This document shows positions 39,942 to 50,770 of a stretch of DNA of 64,000 nt, in pieces. A model generated the notes under the pieces. It did no database searches. It was not told the origin of the DNA and saw only the letters and a list, made by a program, of their open reading frames with translations. Made by a program: the position numbers and the translations under genes. The stretch comes from an uncultured Candidatus Berkelbacteria bacterium (lineage in GTDB: Bacteria > Patescibacteriota > UBA1384 > UBA12157). The stretch spans positions 19,869 through 83,868 of the forward strand of contig CAIRFN010000004.1 in assembly GCA_903877885.1 (NCBI GenBank), in the 5' to 3' direction. Positions within the stretch are counted from its first letter, which is position 1. Each line of letters starts with the position of its first letter.

Positions 39942-40018
39942 TCCCCTGTAGCTCAGTTGGATAGAGCATCTGTCTTCGGAACAGAGTGTCGCAGGTTCGA
40001 ATCCTGTCAGGGGAACCA
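39942..40018 (+). tRNA. tRNA-Arg(TCG)
   Basis: Acceptor TCCCCTG/CAGGGGA, D-loop AGTTGGATA (A20), anticodon arm TCTGT-CTTCGGA-ACAGA, CCA. Confidence 0.93.
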
Positions 40019-40057
40019 ATCTATTCAAAATCCAAAACTCACTCAAATGCCGTACGT

Positions 40058-40134
40058 TCCCGGGTAGCTCAGTTGGATAGAGCATGAGATTGCGGATCTC
40101 AAGGTCGTGGGTTCGAGTCCCATCTCGGGAACCA
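40058..40134 (+). tRNA. tRNA-Arg(GCG)
   Basis: Acceptor TCCCGGG/CTCGGGA, anticodon arm TGAGA-TTGCGGA-TCTCA, CCA. Confidence 0.93.
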
Positions 40135-40223: not shown

Positions 40224-41234
40224 TTATAAATTTATACTCCAGATTTTAGTATCAGGGGTTTGTTCAAAACCAAGCCTGTAGAATGCTGGGTCCATAATCA
40301 TCCAAGTCGGACATTGTTTGATATCGACAGATAATTGTTTGCAACAAAGATTTTTAGCCTCAGAAATTGCAGCCTCAGCCATTTTAATGGTTGTGTCATA
40401 ATCGTCAAGAATACCTTGAACGGCCATAGTTTGGATTATCAAAGTTTCAGTTTCTACTGAATGGACAAGTTTCATACACCCATGAATATCACTATCAATA
40501 GCGTAAACGTAGAATTCATTAATATTTGTGCTGATATATTTTATGTCAGCACGATGATAAAAACTATCTTGAGCTAAAATTCTGATGATTTCAGCAATAT
40601 CGTCATTATTTGCTTTACGGCAATTTTGATAAATATTAGCAGAAATCATTGTTCCGACTCCTTCTGTCGAAAATAGTTCTTTGATTAAACTATTTTCTCG
40701 ATGACGGTGTCCAGAGATAAAATGGACCCTCTTAATTCCTTCTTCGCAGGCTTTTATAGCTAGAAGGAGTTTATGTTTCATAAAACCTTTGATAACTGAT
40801 GTGTCGGCAATATTTTTAGCACTAGCTATATCAAGCTGATGTAGAAGCGCTTGTTCGTTATTGTATATGCCATCACTGGTAGTGATAAAAATTAATTTAT
40901 CCGCTCCTATCTTGATAGCTAATTCATAAGCGCGTACATCAGCGTCTTCATCTGCGCCTTTGATTAAAATAGGTATTATTCCATGTCCCATTTCAGTAAA
41001 ACCAGCCGAGAAGTCATATAGTAGACTCATGTCATCGATAACACTACCCAGCGGCTCGATTCCGGCCAAATAGATTAGCATATTTGTTGTCTCGGCTATC
41101 AAAATAATGTCTTTAGCTAAACCATTTTTTAATATATTTTCGCAGACATTGTGGTCGATTTTGATGACAACTTTCTGTCCATCAAAATGCTTAGCATAGA
41201 GTAGTACATTCCTGATTAAACGGCTCGTATTCAT
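40224..41234 (-). CDS. Degenerate ArgA-like (N-acetylglutamate synthase AAK + GNAT) protein
   Basis: VVIK, LAIKIGADKLIFIT, GIKRVHFI, ELFSTEGVGTMI Arg-binding motif, RKANNDDI linker; AAK domain shortened; no clear acetyl-CoA motif. Confidence 0.7.
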   Translation of the reverse strand: MNTSRLIRNVLLYAKHFDGQKVVIKIDHNVCENILKNGLAKDIILIAETTNMLIYLAGIEPLGSVIDDMSLLYDFSAGFTEMGHGIIPILIKGADEDADVRAYELAIKIGADKLIFITTSDGIYNNEQALLHQLDIASAKNIADTSVIKGFMKHKLLLAIKACEEGIKRVHFISGHRHRENSLIKELFSTEGVGTMISANIYQNCRKANNDDIAEIIRILAQDSFYHRADIKYISTNINEFYVYAIDSDIHGCMKLVHSVETETLIIQTMAVQGILDDYDTTIKMAEAAISEAKNLCCKQLSVDIKQCPTWMIMDPAFYRLGFEQTPDTKIWSINL

Positions 41235-42442
41235 GATTTTCCTCCTTTGCAACAAAAATGACGAATTAGCTCGACATAATGAGTAATGTGGATCGGATCA
41301 AGGAAATTTTCATCAATAGATTCGAAGTCTTGATGCGCATCCCTAATCGATCCCGGCCCTAATATTATTGTATCAGCGCCAGTTCTATGACTAAATATAG
41401 TGGCTTCAGAGCTATAGGAAACTCCTTCGGCTTTTCTATCAAAAATTGTTTCAGCTGCTTCAACCAAATTACATGATTTACTTGTCTCAAGTGGTAGAGT
41501 TGGCGAAGTATTGAACTCAACTTGAATATTTATTCTCTTGTCTTCACTCCGATTCCGATTAATATTATCCGCTATTTGTTCGATAGTAGATTCTAAAAGA
41601 TTGAAAATCGTACCACTATCCTGTCCGTGCATAAAACGTATATCACATTCCAGTTTTATTTCACCAGGAATGATATTTTTAGCTGCATTTGCCCCCATGA
41701 CAATATTACCAATATTCATAGTGGCGTAGTTAGGATCATAATTAACATCTTTAAATTTTCTTAGATGTAGTCCAAATTTTTCAAGTCCGTCAATTACTTG
41801 TGGCAAAGCAATTGTTATTACGTTTACTAAATCTCGAGGGTCAGAACTGTGACTACAACCTTTATTACTTTTCCGCGTGATATTTATTCGGAAGAACATA
41901 TAGCCTTTCTGAAAACGCATCGGGACAAGTAAAGTTGGTTCGCCAACGATAATATTTTTTGCGGGAATAAATTCTTTTTCTGAAAGAAGAAGTTTAACAC
42001 CTTTACAACCTAGTTCTTCGGTATGCGTAAAATATAAAGCCAGACTCTCTGATAGGTCTTCATCTGGAATAGAACTAGCTGCTAGCATGGCCATAGCCAA
42101 AAAAAGTTTCATATCAGTTATGCCTAAACCTTGATATCTTTTTCCTTTTTTAGCGACTGTAAAAACATTGTCTTTCCAGCTTTTGGGATTATAAGAAACA
42201 GTATCAGTATGACCAGATAAAGCTAAGATTGGTTTAGCACTTGGTCCTTTAACGGCCACAAGGTTTGTTTTTTTGCCATTGCCGAAAGAAGTGATTTTGA
42301 ATCTATTTTTTTCACAAAATTCTGCAATGTATTCCAGTGTTAATTTATAACCAGTACCGTCATCAGAAACTACACACTCTTTACTGATAGTGTTAAAACT
42401 TACTAATCTGGTGACCAGATCGAGTAAAGTCAGAGTTTTCAT
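41231..42442 (-). CDS. argE: Acetylornithine deacetylase (M20 family)
   Basis: LSGHTDTV, GITDMK, EELG, GEPT, HSS, GPGSIRDAH; overlaps the argA-like gene. Confidence 0.8.
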   Translation of the reverse strand: MKTLTLLDLVTRLVSFNTISKECVVSDDGTGYKLTLEYIAEFCEKNRFKITSFGNGKKTNLVAVKGPSAKPILALSGHTDTVSYNPKSWKDNVFTVAKKGKRYQGLGITDMKLFLAMAMLAASSIPDEDLSESLALYFTHTEELGCKGVKLLLSEKEFIPAKNIIVGEPTLLVPMRFQKGYMFFRINITRKSNKGCSHSSDPRDLVNVITIALPQVIDGLEKFGLHLRKFKDVNYDPNYATMNIGNIVMGANAAKNIIPGEIKLECDIRFMHGQDSGTIFNLLESTIEQIADNINRNRSEDKRINIQVEFNTSPTLPLETSKSCNLVEAAETIFDRKAEGVSYSSEATIFSHRTGADTIILGPGSIRDAHQDFESIDENFLDPIHITHYVELIRHFCCKGGKS

Positions 42443-42611: not shown

Positions 42612-44462
42612 ATGACAAGTATTGTGACTCTGCGACAACATATTACCGACATGGTAATTACGATGCTCGAAAAGGTTTATAAGAAAAAACCCGAGGTTGT
42701 TAACCTCTCATTGGCTACCGATTTGCGATTCGGCGATTTTCAGATTGCTTGTTTTCAATTTGCTAAGTTCGCAAAGACAAGTCCTGTCGAAATTGCCAAA
42801 GTAATTGCACTGGAATTGGGTAGTTCACCAGACTGGATTTTTTCAAAAGTCGAAGCTATTGGTCCGTATGTTAACCTTACAATTAAGCCAAATCTCTTAT
42901 TTAGTTTGGTTTGTCTTGATTTAGATCAACATGATTTGTTTAGTCAAATATCAATTGGTCATGGTCAGAAGGTAATGGTTGAATATCTCTCGCCAAATAC
43001 AAATAAACCGCTTCATCTCGGTCATGTTCGTAACGGCGTGTTAGGTACGGCATTATCTAATATTTTGACATTAGTGGGTTACAATTTAATCAAAGCTAAT
43101 TTGATCAATGACCGTGGTATCCATATCTGTAAATCAATGTTAGCTTGGCAACGTTGGGGAAATGGCGAGACGCCTGAAACAAATAGTAAAAAAGGCGATC
43201 ACTTAGTTGGCGATTATTATGTTAAATTTGATACTGAGTTTAAAAAGCAACTTTATTCATTAAGAGATGATCGACCAGAATTGAGTGGAAAAACTGATAA
43301 AGAAATTGATGAACTCGCTGACGATTATTTTTTCGAAACTGAAATCGGTCAAGCAGCGCAAGCAATGTTGCGGCATTGGGAGGATGGGAATCAAGAAATC
43401 CGTGATATTTGGAAGATGATGAATCAATGGGTTTACGCTGGTTTTAACGAAACCTACGAGCAATATGGCTTTTCTTTTGATCGTTTTTATTATGAAAATC
43501 AAACTTATTTACTCGGTAAAGATATCGTTCAATCTGGTATTGACCGCGGAATATTTGTTACTGAAGAGAACGGTCAAGTTGTGGCATTATTACCCAAAGA
43601 TGGGTTTGGCTTAGAATCGGGTGGTCACCAAAAACGTATTACCGTGTTGCGCCCTGATGGCACTAGTGTTTATATGACACAGGATATTGGAACTGCTCAG
43701 TTAAAATATGATGATTACGGTTTAGATCGTTCAATTTATATTGTTGGTTCGGAGCAGAACTATCATTTCCAATGTCTATTTCATATTCTAAAGTCACTTG
43801 GATTTAATTGGGCACACGGTTGTTTTCATCTTTCATACGGTATGGTTTATTTACCGCATGGTCGGATGAAATCACGAGAGGGTACAGTAGTTGATGCCGA
43901 TAATTTATTGGAAGAAGTGATTAAGCTTGCAGAGGTGCAAGTTAGAAGTCACAACGAAAATTTACCTTGTCGTGAGATTCTGAAACGGGCACACGATATC
44001 GCTTTAGCAGCCATTAAGTTCTTTTTGTTACGTGTTGGCTCTAGTGTCGATATTCATTTTGATCCAGAAGAATCACTTTCGTTTGAAGGTAATACTGGCC
44101 CGTATTGTCAATATGCTTTTGCTCGAGCCTGTTCTGTAATGGAAAAAGCTGCAAATTTAAGTTTAATACAAACGCCAAATTTCAGTTTATTAGGTAATGC
44201 TGAAGAACGAGCATTGGCTCAAAAGATTATCGGTTTCGCCGATAGTGTTAAAGCGTCTGCTGAAGATATGAGTCCTTCGAAAGTGGCAAACTATATCTTC
44301 GATTTAGCTCGAGCCTTTAATCTGTTCTACGAAAAGCATAAGATTATCGATAGTGACAATATTGAATTAACCACTGCAAGATTTGCTTTGGTTCGTTCAG
44401 TGGCTATGGTGTTAAAACGAGGACTGTTATTATTGGGAATTCCGGTTTTGGAAAATATGTAA
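42612..44462 (+). CDS. argS: Arginine--tRNA ligase
   Basis: EYLSPNTNKPLHLGH, YMTQDIG, RMKSREG, FEGNTGPY.QY, C-terminal ENM. Confidence 0.97.
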   Translation: MTSIVTLRQHITDMVITMLEKVYKKKPEVVNLSLATDLRFGDFQIACFQFAKFAKTSPVEIAKVIALELGSSPDWIFSKVEAIGPYVNLTIKPNLLFSLVCLDLDQHDLFSQISIGHGQKVMVEYLSPNTNKPLHLGHVRNGVLGTALSNILTLVGYNLIKANLINDRGIHICKSMLAWQRWGNGETPETNSKKGDHLVGDYYVKFDTEFKKQLYSLRDDRPELSGKTDKEIDELADDYFFETEIGQAAQAMLRHWEDGNQEIRDIWKMMNQWVYAGFNETYEQYGFSFDRFYYENQTYLLGKDIVQSGIDRGIFVTEENGQVVALLPKDGFGLESGGHQKRITVLRPDGTSVYMTQDIGTAQLKYDDYGLDRSIYIVGSEQNYHFQCLFHILKSLGFNWAHGCFHLSYGMVYLPHGRMKSREGTVVDADNLLEEVIKLAEVQVRSHNENLPCREILKRAHDIALAAIKFFLLRVGSSVDIHFDPEESLSFEGNTGPYCQYAFARACSVMEKAANLSLIQTPNFSLLGNAEERALAQKIIGFADSVKASAEDMSPSKVANYIFDLARAFNLFYEKHKIIDSDNIELTTARFALVRSVAMVLKRGLLLLGIPVLENM

Positions 44463-44559: not shown

Positions 44560-44637
44560 TCCCGTGTAGCTCAGTTCGGATAGAGCAACTGCCTTCTAAG
44601 CAGTAGGTCACCGGTTCAAATCCGGTCACGGGAACCA
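44560..44637 (+). tRNA. tRNA-Arg(TCT)
   Basis: Acceptor TCCCGTG/CACGGGA, anticodon arm ACTGC-CTTCTAA-GCAGT, CCA; own promoter at 44516 and hairpin at about 44652-44672. Confidence 0.93.
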
Positions 44638-44737
44638 ATTATCTTTTTTAAAGGCCGCCTTCGGGCGGCCTTATTCATTGACAATTTTTAACTTATAGAA
44701 TAGAATACAATTAACCGACGAGGTAAGGAGGTTGGTC

Positions 44738-45094
44738 ATGATTGTAATGGGTTGCAATGAGGAAACTGTACCTCTGCAGATGGTCAACTATCTGCTTCAG
44801 GTCTTTCGACAGTTTGGCAAAGTTGGTATTGCCGCTAACAGTATTAATTCTCAAAGTATCGCGATTCGAAGTATGCAATTACTTTGCGAAGAAATTTCGC
44901 AAGAAGATCGGCACAAAATAGAATTCTACGTACTTGATGAAGACATTAATGTGTTAGGAGAAAGTAAACTTGCTGGTTTAGAAGCTGTACCGATTACTGA
45001 CATTGATAAAGCGATGAATCGATTCAACCAAACTCATAACGGATTTCATTATATTTGTCTCGTTGCAAAAAAATGTTTAGACTACCAAATCTGA
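44738..45094 (+). CDS. Hypothetical protein, N-terminus faintly SpoVS/Alba-like
   Basis: Own promoter TTGACA(44678)-17-TAGAAT, GGGAGG RBS, terminator at about 45098-45121; weak visual similarity to SpoVS. Confidence 0.45.
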   Translation: MIVMGCNEETVPLQMVNYLLQVFRQFGKVGIAANSINSQSIAIRSMQLLCEEISQEDRHKIEFYVLDEDINVLGESKLAGLEAVPITDIDKAMNRFNQTHNGFHYICLVAKKCLDYQI

Positions 45095-45129: not shown

Positions 45130-45158
45130 TTGACAAGATGAATAAAACAATTTATATT
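45130..45158 (+). promoter_or_regulatory. Sigma70-type promoter of the leader/PLP/ATP-grasp operon
   Basis: TTGACA-17 bp-TATATT. Confidence 0.65.
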
Positions 45159-45170
45159 AAAATTACGAAT

Positions 45171-45236
45171 ATGAATATAATCCGTCGTCGAAATTTATTA
45201 AATCGCTTAAGGTTGCTTGATGGCAATTTGACTTAG
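45171..45236 (+). CDS. Putative Arg-rich attenuator leader peptide MNIIRRRNLLNRLRLLDGNLT
   Basis: Tandem CGT-CGT-CGA at 45183-45191 plus CGC and AGG; overlaps the antiterminator arm. Confidence 0.7.
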   Translation: MNIIRRRNLLNRLRLLDGNLT

Positions 45237-45290
45237 TATTATCAAAAAAATCGAATTTCTATCAAGCGACCTTAAGCGAGGTCGTTTTTT
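45203..45290 (+). promoter_or_regulatory. Antiterminator/terminator pair (transcription attenuator)
   Basis: 45203-45221 pairs with 45261-45279 (19 bp, one G-U); mutually exclusive terminator GCGACCT-taagcg-AGGTCG followed by T6 (45266-45290). Confidence 0.78.
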
Positions 45291-45334
45291 GTATTCTCGG
45301 TACCTTACAACTTATGCGCAAAGGGGGAATGGTC

Positions 45335-46591
45335 ATGGCGAAGATATTTGAATGTCTAATCTGTGGTAATACAGTTTATGAAAGTGATATTTACACACAC
45401 AAAGCTGTACATCCTGGTTTAAAAAGCTATGGTTATATGTGGCCAAGCTATTATGAAGAAAACCCAAATCGGAATCTTCGGTTAGCTCCAATTCACCAGT
45501 CTACATTATTTGCTGAGGCTATCGGTGTAAGTGAAGTGTATATTCGTGACGAAGGCCAAAATCTTTCTGGTAGTATGAAAGATTATATCGTTGAAGAAGC
45601 AGTGAATTTAGGTATTGCTGACGGCGCCAATGTTTTTACAGTAGTTTCAAGCGGTAATCAAGCTTTTTCATTAGCTAAATACACGCAATTGGCTGGGAAA
45701 AAAGCTGTTTTGTTCGCACCAGAATCATCATCAAAGATTGGTATACTTTCTACTCTAGATAACGTTTTCATCTTAGCTGTAAAAGATGCCATCTTCGAAG
45801 ATGTATATCGTTTGGCAGCGGATCTAAACTTACCTGGCGTGTACAACGCCAATGTAACGAACGATTTATTGCTACCTGGTTTAGTTACAGTGAGTCGACA
45901 GATTATTGAGGCAGGGCTTAATATCGATTATGTTTTGTCTGGTGTTGGTAATGGTACATATTTGGCTGGCCTAACACTTGGCTTTATGAAGTATCGATAC
46001 GCTTTGCCAAAAATCATTCCAGTTGGGATGATGGGGGCTTTCCCAACTCAAGTCGCACTTGAAAACGGGATATCTTGTTATGAATATCAAGACTTTCAAG
46101 TTGATGAATCGATTATAGATGCGGCTGAAGGTTCGATTGCTATTGCTAGTTACAGTATGCCTCAGCTCATCCATGCTATCACTGTTTCCAATGGTTTTTG
46201 TCTTGGCGATTTACTTAATTCTGATTTGGCTACAGCCTATGATCTTTTGTATCAGGACAAAGCGTTGGTTGATGCAGGTGCTATTCCTGAACCAACAGGT
46301 ATAATGGGTTTAGCTGCGGCAATCAAATATCGCAACTGTTTTGGGTCAAAAAGTCGTTTACTTATCTCATTTACTGGTCATGGAGTCAAAGATTTAGAGG
46401 GAATTAAGCGACTTGTGCCAAATTTGTATGACGAATTGTCTGCGGCGGCTTTAGCTAGTCGTCCGGATTTATCTGTGTCCTTCGCGGAAATGGATATGTC
46501 CAAGATCAAGCTAATCGACAAAGAAATGTCAAAAACTGACATTGAGTCGATAGTGTATAACTGGCTTCGGAAAGAAGGGGGTAACTTATGA
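45335..46591 (+). CDS. Threonine-synthase-like fold-type II PLP-dependent enzyme with N-terminal CxxC...HxxxH zinc motif
   Basis: DEGQNLSGSMKD (PLP Lys), SSGN, GVGNG, PEPTG, SFTGHGVK. Confidence 0.85.
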   Translation: MAKIFECLICGNTVYESDIYTHKAVHPGLKSYGYMWPSYYEENPNRNLRLAPIHQSTLFAEAIGVSEVYIRDEGQNLSGSMKDYIVEEAVNLGIADGANVFTVVSSGNQAFSLAKYTQLAGKKAVLFAPESSSKIGILSTLDNVFILAVKDAIFEDVYRLAADLNLPGVYNANVTNDLLLPGLVTVSRQIIEAGLNIDYVLSGVGNGTYLAGLTLGFMKYRYALPKIIPVGMMGAFPTQVALENGISCYEYQDFQVDESIIDAAEGSIAIASYSMPQLIHAITVSNGFCLGDLLNSDLATAYDLLYQDKALVDAGAIPEPTGIMGLAAAIKYRNCFGSKSRLLISFTGHGVKDLEGIKRLVPNLYDELSAAALASRPDLSVSFAEMDMSKIKLIDKEMSKTDIESIVYNWLRKEGGNL

Positions 46592-47820
46592 AACGGATAA
46601 TCATCGACACTCAAAGCAACAGGCTTTTTCAAGGTATTGCTGCTGAACAAAATTATGATCAGCGAGGTGGACTTTGTCAAGTTGGAGAAGGTAATGTTGT
46701 CGTAACAACTAATCCTATCAATGTTGATTATTTGGATTATTGGCAAGAAGTCGGTTTTAGTTTGCCACATCTACTTACAGTTGGACCATTCGATCCTAGT
46801 TGTACAATTTCAGATTTAATTGTTCGTAATTTGGATGTCCAGACAGAAATTAAACGTTTAATTGATGGCTCAAATGCTCGTTTAGAATTCTTTTGTATTG
46901 AAGAATCTGAACGTAAGCTTGTTGAAACATTGGGCATCGAACCATATTGTAATATTGACGTTTCGATCAAACTTTCGAGAAAGCATAATTTTAAATCTTT
47001 ATGTGAAGAAATCGGTCTACCAACTCCAGAGTGGTTGGTTGGCAGAGATCGACGCGATCTCGCGAAGTATGGCAAAAAATTTCTGAGCGACTATTCTCAA
47101 CCATTTTTAGTAAAATCAGTTGATGGTACTGGTGGAATTTCTTGCGGCGGTATGGCATTAGTCAGAAATCAAGAGGAATTACTCCATCTTTGTAGTAATT
47201 CTGCTACGCTTGGTAACCATTTTATTTTGGAAAAGTTAATTCCTGATAAGGATGTTGAACTGTCGATTCATTGGCAGATAACTAAAGATTATGAATTAAT
47301 GGTTACTGATATTTTTTGTCAGCTTTCCGATAATTTTGCTTATGCTGGTGCTTGTGGTCCAGTCGACATTGCGCCGTCAATTAAAGATGAGATTATCTTA
47401 ACCTTAAAGGATATTTTCGCTCCAGCTTTGATTAAGGCGGGTGCTATTGGCTTCTTCTGTTGTGACCTGATCGTCGATAAATCTGGAAAAGTTTTTTGGA
47501 TTGACTTCAATCCGAGAAAAGGTGCAATCATCTATATTCATAGTATGGTTAGCCGTCTTTCCCAGAATGTTTTTGATAATAAGAGGCTCCATTTTTTTCA
47601 CCGGCATTGCCAGGCTGATAAAAATTTAAGCTTTTCTGAAGTGTATCAAAAAATCGGTCATCTTATGACACCAAGCGAAGATCCATTCGTAGTCATTACA
47701 AATCCTGGTTTGATTGAATATGGCTACGTTGATATCACTGGTATCTCTCATAATTCTGTTGATGAAGCACGTGAGTTTTTTGTCCAAGCCGAACAAACGA
47801 TAAAAAACACAGCGTGTTAA
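46588..47820 (+). CDS. ATP-grasp peptide ligase, PGM1-like (pre-ATP-grasp N-terminus)
   Basis: N-terminal NYDQR...VVVTT.P...DYLDY; KHNFK, LVKSVDGTGG, ILEK, CDLIV, IDFNPR. Confidence 0.7.
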   Translation: MKRIIIDTQSNRLFQGIAAEQNYDQRGGLCQVGEGNVVVTTNPINVDYLDYWQEVGFSLPHLLTVGPFDPSCTISDLIVRNLDVQTEIKRLIDGSNARLEFFCIEESERKLVETLGIEPYCNIDVSIKLSRKHNFKSLCEEIGLPTPEWLVGRDRRDLAKYGKKFLSDYSQPFLVKSVDGTGGISCGGMALVRNQEELLHLCSNSATLGNHFILEKLIPDKDVELSIHWQITKDYELMVTDIFCQLSDNFAYAGACGPVDIAPSIKDEIILTLKDIFAPALIKAGAIGFFCCDLIVDKSGKVFWIDFNPRKGAIIYIHSMVSRLSQNVFDNKRLHFFHRHCQADKNLSFSEVYQKIGHLMTPSEDPFVVITNPGLIEYGYVDITGISHNSVDEAREFFVQAEQTIKNTAC

Positions 47821-47923
47821 AAAGTTATTTCACAGGGTAATCCGCGTGATTACCCTTTTTAATTACTATTTAACACATAATTAAAAAATTTAGTTAAAGA
47901 ACTGAATATGGTAAAATTTTAAT

Positions 47924-49006
47924 ATGAAAATAAAATCGATTACGTTTAAAGAATTTAATTTAAAACTTTCAGAGCCGTTTAGCTACTATACGGCGACTTT
48001 AGAATGTCTTCCTTATGAAATTATAACAATAAAGACTGATAACGAGATCTTCGGATTTGGCGAAGCGGCTTTGGCTTGGGATGTAACTGGAGAAACACAA
48101 GAAGGAGCACTTGGTCTTTTTAAATATATTAAACCTTTGTTAATAAATCATAAACTGAATTCTATCGAAGATATTAAAGAAATGATGAAAAATATCGACC
48201 TAAATGTTCATGAGAACTCTGCCTTGAAATCAGGTATAGAATTTGCTCTTTTAGACGTTTTGGGAAAATTTAAAAACAAACCAGTTTACAAACTATTAGG
48301 TGGAAAAGAAAAAGAATTTGTTGTTGCTCAAAGAGTTTTTCCTTATAAAGAAAAACATTCCGATGATCTTCAACAAAAAATTACTTTAAGCCTTCAAAAC
48401 GGCGCAGAAATCATTAAATTTAAAGCAGGAGAAAATTCAGAGATAGATTACCAAATTATCGAAAAAGTTGTTAACTTTTTTCCGACAATAAAATTAGTCT
48501 TAGATGTCAACCAAGGTTGGAAAAATTTCTTGAATGCTTGGCCAATAATTAAAAAATTGGAAAAATTTAAAAAAAATATTTTATGGATTGAACAACCGAT
48601 ATTTTCAAGTGATTATGAAGGGCTAGCTGAACTGAGTAAGAAAAGCGAAATTTTGATTATGGCTGACGAAAGTTGTCATAATCTACTTGATTTGAAAAAT
48701 CTTTACCTAAACAAATCAGTCAAACTAATTAATATTAAATTAGCAAAATGCGGTGGGATTCTCCCAGCGATGGAAATGGTTAAGTTTTGTGAAGAAAAAG
48801 ATATAAAATATATGTTAGGTGATATGATCAATTCCCCTTTAGGGACTGCTGCCAATCTTCAGATGGCTACATTAGGAAATTTCATTAGTTACGATCTGAC
48901 ACTCAATAATAAAATTGAGTCTGATCCGACTTCTGGTCTAAAAATTGATGGTTATAAATTCTATATACCACAAACATCTGGCATAGGTGTAAGCTTAAAG
49001 AATTGA
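47924..49006 (+). CDS. Enolase superfamily enzyme (MLE subgroup, dipeptide-epimerase-like)
   Basis: GFGEA, KFK, LDVNQ, EQP, ADES, NIKLAK. Confidence 0.85.
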   Translation: MKIKSITFKEFNLKLSEPFSYYTATLECLPYEIITIKTDNEIFGFGEAALAWDVTGETQEGALGLFKYIKPLLINHKLNSIEDIKEMMKNIDLNVHENSALKSGIEFALLDVLGKFKNKPVYKLLGGKEKEFVVAQRVFPYKEKHSDDLQQKITLSLQNGAEIIKFKAGENSEIDYQIIEKVVNFFPTIKLVLDVNQGWKNFLNAWPIIKKLEKFKKNILWIEQPIFSSDYEGLAELSKKSEILIMADESCHNLLDLKNLYLNKSVKLINIKLAKCGGILPAMEMVKFCEEKDIKYMLGDMINSPLGTAANLQMATLGNFISYDLTLNNKIESDPTSGLKIDGYKFYIPQTSGIGVSLKN

Positions 49007-49099: not shown

Positions 49100-50167
49100 A
49101 TGAGTTTGTCCAACACATTTAGAGAATTAGTAGAAATTGATAGTCCATCTGGCCAAGAGCAGGCAGTGGCTAAATATTTGGAAATTTGGCTGACTAGTCA
49201 AAATTTTGAATATTTTAAGGATGATATTGGTAACATTTTGGCTTTCCGATCTGGAAGTGGCGAACCGTTACTTTTATGTGCACATATGGACGTGGTAGAT
49301 CCTTGTTTAGGGGTTAAGCCATCGTTTATCAACGGTGTAGTTAAAAGTGATGGCACTACTGTTCTTGGCGCTGATAATAAAGCATCAATTGCTGCAATTA
49401 TTAAGGGGGTTGAAGATTATTTGGCGCAAACAGGTGAGCCAAGAGCAATCGAGATTCTTTTCGCTGTCAAGGAAGAAACTGGCGGTGGTGTAGAATTCAT
49501 GGACTTCTCTAAAATTAAGTCAAAACAAGGAATTATATTTGACTTAATTAAGCCGATTGGCACAATCGCTATTGCCTCACCATATATTTACAATTTTCAC
49601 ATTAAATTTACTGGCAAATCTTCTCATGCTAGTCGACCGGATGAAGGGAAAAGTGCACTTAAACCGGCGGCGAAATTGATTACTAGTGCCGATGATGGGT
49701 TTTTAGATAATGGTTTAACAACTATTAATTTCGGAAAAATAGAAGCTGGTACTGGTATTAATATTATACCAGAAACAGCAACTATTCATGGCGAAGTTCG
49801 CAGTTTTAAAAAAGATTTATTTGAAGCACATTTGGAAGCAATAGAGAAAATGGCTAAAAAATGTGCTAGTGAAGATGGCGTAAAAGTAGACTTTACCACG
49901 GACGGCCGTTGTGCCGGTTATGAGTTTCCAGAAGATGATACATTTATAAAAAAAATTAGCGCGGTTTTAGCTAAGAATGGTCATAAAATTGTTTTTTATA
50001 AAACATCTGGCATAAGTGATTCCAATCCGCTTGTTGAAGCCGGTATTAAAGTGGTGACTTTAGGTGACGGTATTACAAAAGCTCATACAGTCGAAGAAGA
50101 AATCAGCCTTGAATCGCTCGAAAGTATGCGAGCATTAGTTTTTGATTTTCTTCAAAAATTAGATTAG
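49100..50167 (+). CDS. M20 family peptidase (PepT-like)
   Basis: AHMD, LGADNK, KEETG, SSHA, AHTVEE. Confidence 0.88.
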   Translation: MSLSNTFRELVEIDSPSGQEQAVAKYLEIWLTSQNFEYFKDDIGNILAFRSGSGEPLLLCAHMDVVDPCLGVKPSFINGVVKSDGTTVLGADNKASIAAIIKGVEDYLAQTGEPRAIEILFAVKEETGGGVEFMDFSKIKSKQGIIFDLIKPIGTIAIASPYIYNFHIKFTGKSSHASRPDEGKSALKPAAKLITSADDGFLDNGLTTINFGKIEAGTGINIIPETATIHGEVRSFKKDLFEAHLEAIEKMAKKCASEDGVKVDFTTDGRCAGYEFPEDDTFIKKISAVLAKNGHKIVFYKTSGISDSNPLVEAGIKVVTLGDGITKAHTVEEEISLESLESMRALVFDFLQKLD

Positions 50168-50293: not shown

Positions 50294-50770
50294 ATGATAA
50301 TAAATGTATCTCAAGGTTTGGGTACTGGCAAAACTGAACTTTCTGCTTTTGATAAAGCATTGTATGAAGCAGGTGTTGCTAATTATAATCTTGTTCGTCT
50401 GTCGTCAGTCATTCCAGTTGGCGCTGAAGTAAAAATAAATCAACTTAGTGATAATGCTCGTAACGAATTTGGTTATAAATTATTTTTAGTTTATGCTGAA
50501 CAACGTGAATCTGAAATTGGCAAAGAAGCTTGGGCGGGAGTTGGTTGGGTTCAAACCGAAGACGGTCGAGGGCTATTTGTTGAGCATGAAGGCTCGAGTG
50601 AAAAAGAAGTTCGTGGTTTAATTAAAAATAGTTTGACGGATATGGTCAAATATCGAAAAGATTATAAATTTGGCGAAATTAATTATTCGGTTTGTGGTAT
50701 ACGTTGTGAAGACCAGCCAGTCTGCGCTTTTATGGCCGCTGTTTATCAAAGTCAAAGCTGGGATAAATAG
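50294..50770 (+). CDS. Pyruvoyl-dependent arginine decarboxylase
   Basis: AFD.AL..AGVANYNLVRLSSVIP self-cleavage motif. Confidence 0.85.
   Translation: MIINVSQGLGTGKTELSAFDKALYEAGVANYNLVRLSSVIPVGAEVKINQLSDNARNEFGYKLFLVYAEQRESEIGKEAWAGVGWVQTEDGRGLFVEHEGSSEKEVRGLIKNSLTDMVKYRKDYKFGEINYSVCGIRCEDQPVCAFMAAVYQSQSWDK

Follow-up and report, generated by a model that had tools for sequence, protein, structure and literature searches.

The window analysed here is a 64,000-nucleotide stretch of the genome of an uncultured Candidatus Berkelbacteria bacterium (GenBank assembly GCA_903877885.1, contig CAIRFN010000004.1, positions 19,869 to 83,868 of the forward strand), a member of the candidate phyla radiation (CPR), and all coordinates given without a locus name refer to it. 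On its forward strand a short leader region, which we interpret as an arginine-codon attenuator, precedes the genes of a fold-type II pyridoxal phosphate (PLP) enzyme (PF00291, with a threonine/cysteate-synthase-like fold; 45335..46591) and of a pre-ATP-grasp amide ligase (46588..47820). The region begins with a sigma70-type promoter, TTGACA-17-TATATT (45130..45158, score 11/12), although promoter-like sites alone are at chance level in the window (11 found versus 13.1 in shuffles). The promoter is followed by a leader open reading frame (ORF) of 21 codons (45171..45236), in which CGT CGT CGA at codons 5–7 (45183-45191) form the control run and two further arginine codons stand at positions 12 (CGC) and 14 (AGG); its ATG lies 12 nt past the -10 box and is not preceded by a Shine–Dalgarno (SD) sequence. 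An antiterminator hairpin (45203..45279) pairs 45203-45223 with 45259-45279 and encloses an inner 7-bp helix, with which it reaches -38 kcal/mol and is the minimum-energy fold of the leader. An intrinsic terminator (45264..45292; stem 45264-45287, -11.9 kcal/mol, U-rich tail) uses the 3' arm of the antiterminator as its own 5' arm, and the two hairpins are mutually exclusive. The leader region folds with a z-score of -6.0, and none of 200 shuffles is as stable. An earlier note on this DNA, made from the letters alone, had described the promoter, the ORF with its RRR run and two additional arginines, and a 19-bp antiterminator overlapping the terminator; all are present, and the antiterminator is longer than described, since the 19-bp arms (45203-45221/45261-45279, one G-U pair) extend to a helix of 21 bp. 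No Rfam family reaches its gathering score on the leader, where only chance matches to miRNA-like hairpins were seen, and the T-box family RF00230 has no match in the window or in the host genome.

These elements recur upstream of homologous genes. Through an alignment comprising 68 of 87 PLP homologues, 19 genome loci and 42 metagenome loci were fetched; with two distant PLP matches dropped (L019 and L020, 28-29% identity) and the window added, the set comprises 60 loci. A leader stands directly 5' of the PLP gene in 18 of them (17 distinct sequences), a T-box in three, and a complete argS at no more than 200 nt in seven; the remaining 32 lack all three. The earlier note had made its proposal depend on whether homologous loci keep the arginine run and the hairpins, and 18 of the 60 do keep the run together with covarying hairpins. 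Across the 17 leaders, arginine occupies 70 of 276 in-frame codons before the hairpin (25%) versus 18 of 520 (3.5%) when the other frames, interrupted by 37 stops, are read; each of the six arginine codons occurs in frame, and arginine makes up 3.7% of long ORFs in the host genome. Selection of the leaders for their arginine runs makes the codon count circular when taken by itself, and held-out tests weigh more. Of the alignment cells of the antiterminator, 90% are paired, and 15 of its 21 pairs show two-sided changes (0 of 500 shuffles match it, and slid controls reach 31-56%); for the terminator the figures are 88% of cells and 5 of 8 pairs. In pairing and in covariation score both hairpins exceed all 500 shuffles, and they exceed all slid controls. 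The leader ORFs are 15-34 codons long and have a compact arginine run, outside which the peptide sequence is not conserved. Among 23 homologous leaders, 18 have exact TTGACA as their best upstream -35 box, 12 have the ATG 6-9 nt past the best -10 box and one has an SD core; this proximity together with the near absence of SD cores suggests that the leaders mostly initiate leaderless.

A covariance model built from the 17 leaders retrieved six further leaders with arginine runs that had not been used in training. They precede argS (L003), GNAT and argS (L006), argG (L007), short GNAT genes (L071, L077) or a contig end (L076). A model blind to the ORF, from which the arginine run was excluded, gave six untrained matches at E<1e-4 in the 18 carrier genomes, five with arginine runs and one without; under stricter filters, it gave no convincing match in 150 genomes of the phylum, the single match, in G203, having no arginine leader. 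At three loci (L011, L013 and L044) a T-box takes the place of the leader before the PLP gene, with CGC, an arginine codon, at the specifier position, so that the position is occupied by a sensor that is unrelated but reads the same signal. The L044 T-box scores 121 bits and reads GAA-CGC-G, and those of L011 and L013 fall short of the cut-off of 93, at 59 and 50 bits, with CGC in short stem-I loops. These last two (L011:2767-2950, L013:7694-7867), which occur in small genomes, have a very short stem I with the specifier in the terminal loop. Between the PLP and GNAT genes, at L006:3597-3690, lies a pair of leader-like hairpins that has no arginine run and is possibly a decayed copy.

The proposed switch was examined with a model in which the ribosome masks 13 nt, starting at the first base of its A site. 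The comparison of masked and unmasked folds, a check named in the earlier note, gives for the window leader an antiterminator with the ribosome at codons 2-10 and a terminator from codon 11 onward. With the switch between codons 10 and 11, Arg12 and Arg14 come too late, and the RRR run alone is predicted to sense arginine; the stall and read-through model put forward earlier thus holds, on this folding model, for the run and not for the two other codons. The likeness then drawn to the geometry of the trp, his, leu and thr attenuators does not hold: there is no 1:2 protector, the ribosome-free leader is predicted to form the antiterminator (terminator probability, Pterm, 0.0) and thus to read through, and we infer from the folding model a design of three segments. 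In the mechanism we propose, the ribosome would start at or close to the transcript's 5' end. With ample charged Arg-tRNA it would pass the RRR run and from about codon 11 cover 45203-45223, leaving the 3' arm free to form the terminator; with scarce Arg-tRNA it would stall at codons 5-7, the 21-bp antiterminator would form and RNA polymerase would read through. At equilibrium, 11 of the 17 leaders flip cleanly after the arginine run, two are noisy and four are always in the terminator form, one of these four (L004) having been scored on the wrong hairpin. In a co-transcriptional re-test of the six non-clean and the six new leaders, a ribosome on the arginine run led to the antiterminator before the 3' arm of the terminator was made in all 12, and the antiterminator was lost with the ribosome further on in 11; five of the six new leaders flip at equilibrium too. 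What the data show are sequence, conservation, covariation and gene context; that the leader is translated in coupling with transcription and causes termination in response to this signal is an inference. We consider it very probable that 45130-45292 is a conserved, ribosome-mediated transcription attenuator operating through arginine codons, which would admit transcription to the PLP and ATP-grasp genes at low levels of charged tRNA-Arg, and which belongs to a larger island.

Several observations weigh against this interpretation. In the equilibrium model four leaders (L006, L010, L026, L071) keep the terminator wherever the ribosome stands and three (L004, L012, L054) switch noisily, so that kinetic trapping would be needed in these. 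No pause hairpin was identified in the leaders, SD cores are nearly absent as mentioned above, and coupling is an assumption. More than half of the loci, the 32 mentioned above, have neither leader nor T-box nor adjoining argS, and several full operons are among those without any element (L009, L014, L017, L034, L051, L060); many of the 32 are truncated or lie in the methyltransferase/binding-protein context described below, and two end in an apparent argS tail at a contig edge. Because leaders are related pairwise, the covariation statistics are inflated, and L010, misaligned in alignment A3, was kept in the hairpin covariation counts. In the host genome a terminator splits the racemase gene from the ATP-grasp gene. 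Finally, none of the enzymes is closely related to a characterised one, identity being 23% for the PLP enzyme and 12-16% for the ligase.

The genes around the leader make up an arginine island, which is mobile and of which the leader-controlled genes are part. The host genome (1.0 Mb, 99% complete) yielded no argC, ArgR, Rho or T-box, and the PLP gene is present in 3 of 401 genomes of the phylum, so the island is rare. Upstream of the leader lie tRNA-Arg(TCG) and tRNA-Arg(GCG) (39942..40134, forward strand), which are duplicates, an ArgA-like AAK+GNAT protein (40224-41255, reverse strand) and an ArgE-like deacetylase (41231-42442, reverse strand), both below the NCBIfam cut-offs, a second, auxiliary arginyl-tRNA synthetase (ArgRS; 42612..44462, forward strand), and tRNA-Arg(TCT) (44560..44637, forward strand), whose anticodon is also encoded elsewhere. 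Between this tRNA and the leader, a 120-amino-acid ORF (44732-45094) has its own promoter and terminator; it has no Pfam or NCBIfam match, and a structure search gave weak GNAT-like shapes only. Downstream, all on the forward strand, an intrinsic terminator 3' of the ATP-grasp gene (47834..47862) is the probable end of the leader-controlled transcript, and is followed by the genes of an enolase-superfamily racemase/epimerase (47924..49006, present in 28 of 60 loci), an M20 PepT-like hydrolase, predicted to be a deacylase (49100..50167), and a pyruvoyl-dependent arginine decarboxylase-like protein (50294..50770). The recurring cluster consists of argS, the PLP gene, an ATP-grasp or GNAT gene, the racemase, an M20 or AstE-like hydrolase, and ArgE-like and ArgA-like genes, to which argG/argH, argF, arcA or arginase are sometimes added. 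This context supports the earlier proposal that the PLP and ATP-grasp pair is linked to arginine supply or salvage; of the two-enzyme operon then described both genes stand, but the functional unit is larger than two genes.

In the 60 loci, the gene after the PLP gene is ATP-grasp in 24 and GNAT in 13, both occurring only in L009, and this alternation suggests that the two enzymes both form an amide. No ATP-grasp protein turned up in a search of 60 relatives, a search that missed G002, a carrier of the GNAT version. The fold of the ligase is closest to peptide ligases of the BesA, PGM1 and LdmS types, which its model matches with TM 0.66-0.81; the names PGM1 and LdmS are those we take these structural matches to bear. 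The racemase keeps two catalytic-type lysine motifs, and DxD, the dipeptide-epimerase motif, is mostly absent from it. Its best solved relative is PDB 2p88 (E 1e-43), presumably BC0371. The accessible part of the published description presents BC0371 as an N-succinyl-Arg racemase (PMC2948282). An assignment of the PLP enzyme as a threonine synthase (ThrC) was rejected: it has SMKDY, SSGNH and NANVSNELL instead of SFKDRG, STGNT and NSVNPYR, the ThrC motifs, which include Arg and Ser phosphate ligands, and it lies far below the NCBIfam cut-offs, so that it is probably not a threonine synthase. The PLP family also occurs in a second context without an arginine leader, next to a SCO2525-family methyltransferase and/or an ABC-type binding protein (L033, L035-L037, L039, L042, L045, L046).

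The second ArgRS is a regular companion of the cluster. Two argS loci are present in 15 of 18 carrier genomes (two have one and one is unclear); the 59 relatives that lack the ATP-grasp gene include one clear two-argS case, plus two marginal cross-matches and one split gene. In the host, a further argS and a complete set of tRNA-Arg genes lie outside the island, and the housekeeping ArgRS (G000:C8:7747-9276) is about 27% identical to the island type. At the HIGH-type motif the auxiliary enzyme has HLGH and the housekeeping one TLGN, and the auxiliary enzyme keeps what we take to be the standard arginine-pocket motifs. The three tRNA-Arg of the island have U1-A72 as first pair, unlike the host's five other tRNA-Arg genes, a pattern found in 2 of 401 phylum genomes. 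This pair was considered as a mark of a tRNA-dependent pathway and rejected as not general, since the island tRNAs of L044 and G074 start with G. Elsewhere tRNA-Arg genes are clustered beside the island argS, with five in L063 (G074:C2:22500-27000) and four at L044:885-1255; in G074, four tRNA-Arg anticodons of the cluster are duplicated elsewhere in the genome.

The role that best fits this gene set is salvage of L-arginine by acylation, racemisation and deacylation, which we hold to be a serious possibility just short of probable. The ligase (or the GNAT) would N-acylate D-arginine or something related to it, the enolase-family enzyme would racemise the acylated compound, and the M20 or AstE-like enzyme would release L-arginine, which the second ArgRS would load on the extra tRNA-Arg; the PLP enzyme may supply the acyl tag. 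A pathway converting D- to L-amino acids through GNAT, racemase and M20 enzymes has been described (10.1101/2022.03.03.481873), and the accessible part of that work shows the same association of an acylating enzyme, an enolase-family racemase and an M20/AstE hydrolase side by side. The island differs from it in that the window has ATP-grasp and not GNAT, as in the 24 loci where ATP-grasp replaces GNAT, and in that a PLP enzyme is constant and is accompanied by a second ArgRS and by Arg-tRNA control. With the same attenuator, the island could instead protect the cell from an arginine analogue or an ArgRS inhibitor: the compound would lower Arg-tRNA charging, the PLP enzyme, acting as a lyase, and the acylating enzyme would detoxify it, and the second ArgRS would be resistant and the tRNAs spare. 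Auxiliary synthetases can serve as resistance genes, and the second ArgRS travels with the cluster, differs from the housekeeping copy at the HLGH motif and is itself behind an arginine leader in L003 and L006, while tRNA-Arg sets are duplicated in G000 and G074. However, argG occurs at 5 of 60 loci and 6 of 15 small carrier genomes have it, a racemase and a hydrolase suit recovery more than destruction, the arginine-pocket motifs appear unchanged, and no literature was found on such a gene combination; we think defence unlikely.

Rather less likely still is a third role under the same attenuator, a non-canonical route to ornithine, citrulline or arginine that would replace ArgB/C/D and feed the ArgA-like, ArgE-like and ArgG/H enzymes. 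In its favour, none of the 15 small carrier genomes yielded argC, and yet ArgA-like (13 of 60 loci), ArgE-like and argG/argH genes accompany the cluster; against it, no reductase is conserved in the cluster, and in the host, whose genome is 99% complete, tblastn did not find argG, argH or argF, so that the canonical route could not be completed there. Other alternatives concern the leader itself. Macrolides arrest ribosomes at RLR and RxR motifs, and several leaders contain RLR or RxR; the leader could thus be a sensor of its nascent peptide, as in SpeFL or the arginine attenuator peptide (AAP), or of an antibiotic stalling ribosomes at Arg-X-Arg, rather than of tRNA charging, and switches of the whiB7 type do respond to general translation stress, as far as the accessible text tells (10.1101/2023.06.02.543512). 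The lack of peptide conservation outside the arginine run, the position of the window's RLR past the switch point and the replacement of the leader by T-boxes, readers of uncharged tRNA, make this very improbable. That a chance ORF overlies a constitutive hairpin and terminator is largely refuted by the comparative data and hardly credible: the host genome does contain 83 short ORFs after promoter-like sites, three of them with at least three arginines in five codons, but chance explains neither conservation, synonymous variation and covariation nor the held-out matches.

Arginine genes are a textbook case of repressor control, and trp/his-type attenuators have four segments. With trpL, hisL, leuL, thrL and pheL the leader shares a short ORF in which codons for one amino acid form a run, a mutually exclusive antiterminator and intrinsic terminator, and a predicted stall that leads to read-through; it differs in that it lacks the 1:2 protector or pause hairpin of the trp/his type and the untranslated window leader is predicted to read through, in that arginine is the predicted signal and the enzymes are non-canonical, and in that the leaders are mostly leaderless or have a very short 5' untranslated region. 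The window leader does not precede a canonical arginine biosynthetic operon, and a homologous leader precedes argG in L007. An arginine-specifier T-box (RF00230) has the same predicted input, uncharged tRNA-Arg, and the same output, the predicted sensor here being the ribosome. Leaderless cysteine attenuators reportedly exist in mycobacteria (10.1101/834739). In the accessible part of the mycobacterial whiB7 work, efficient translation of an upstream ORF leads to the terminator and stalling to the antiterminator and read-through, and the codon content of that ORF sets the amino acid sensed (10.1101/2023.06.02.543512); the logic is the same, but that ORF is described as long, alanine-enriched and broadly stress-responsive, in contrast to the 15-34 codons and compact arginine run found here. 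Arginine codons of a leader ORF also sense arginine in Salmonella speF orf34, which acts via Rho, RNase G and access to the ribosome-binding site, with no Rho-independent terminator (PMC6386406), and in Staphylococcus aureus rbfL, which acts on translation initiation (PMC13009471); neither is, in the accessible parts of these papers, a terminator/antiterminator switch. The earlier note knew of no classical attenuator of this kind for arginine, and searches confined to the open-access full text of articles yielded neither such an arginine attenuator nor one for any amino acid in Patescibacteria. We regard the element as an arginine-specific, three-segment and mostly leaderless form, in CPR bacteria, of the known leader-peptide attenuation. 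If true, reduced CPR genomes keep coupled transcription–translation control, and the leader can be used as an annotation tool that ties two orphan enzyme families to arginine supply. More speculatively, and with considerable doubt, we propose that CPR bacteria exchange an 'arginine rescue' island with plug-and-play regulation (arginine leader, arginine T-box or co-transcription with argS), which would recover L-arginine from D-arginine or another derivative in an ATP- and PLP-dependent manner and use a second ArgRS with its own tRNAs, and that the RNA scaffold has been reprogrammed to cysteine, isoleucine and aromatic residues by a swap of control codons, forming a CPR family of leaderless attenuators.

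The same scaffold was also seen with other residues. Two weakly scoring examples have an aromatic-rich FWFYF leader (L108, G064:C2:739-823) and an isoleucine-rich one (L087, G065:C17:318-420), and no matching target gene was seen for either. A cysteine-rich leader, CCLCC (L084 and L089, G069:C7:19284-19428), precedes a 223-amino-acid gene without assigned family, a creatininase-family gene and a gene for L-2-amino-thiazoline-4-carboxylate hydrolase, and is likely a cysteine-sensing version. In G062:C13 (L080, L090) the scaffold, without an arginine run, stands before an uncharacterised gene followed by genes for an M19 dipeptidase, an Asp/Glu racemase, an AstE-like protein and then a proS-like protein, which by its predicted gene products is a parallel racemase/hydrolase/synthetase module.

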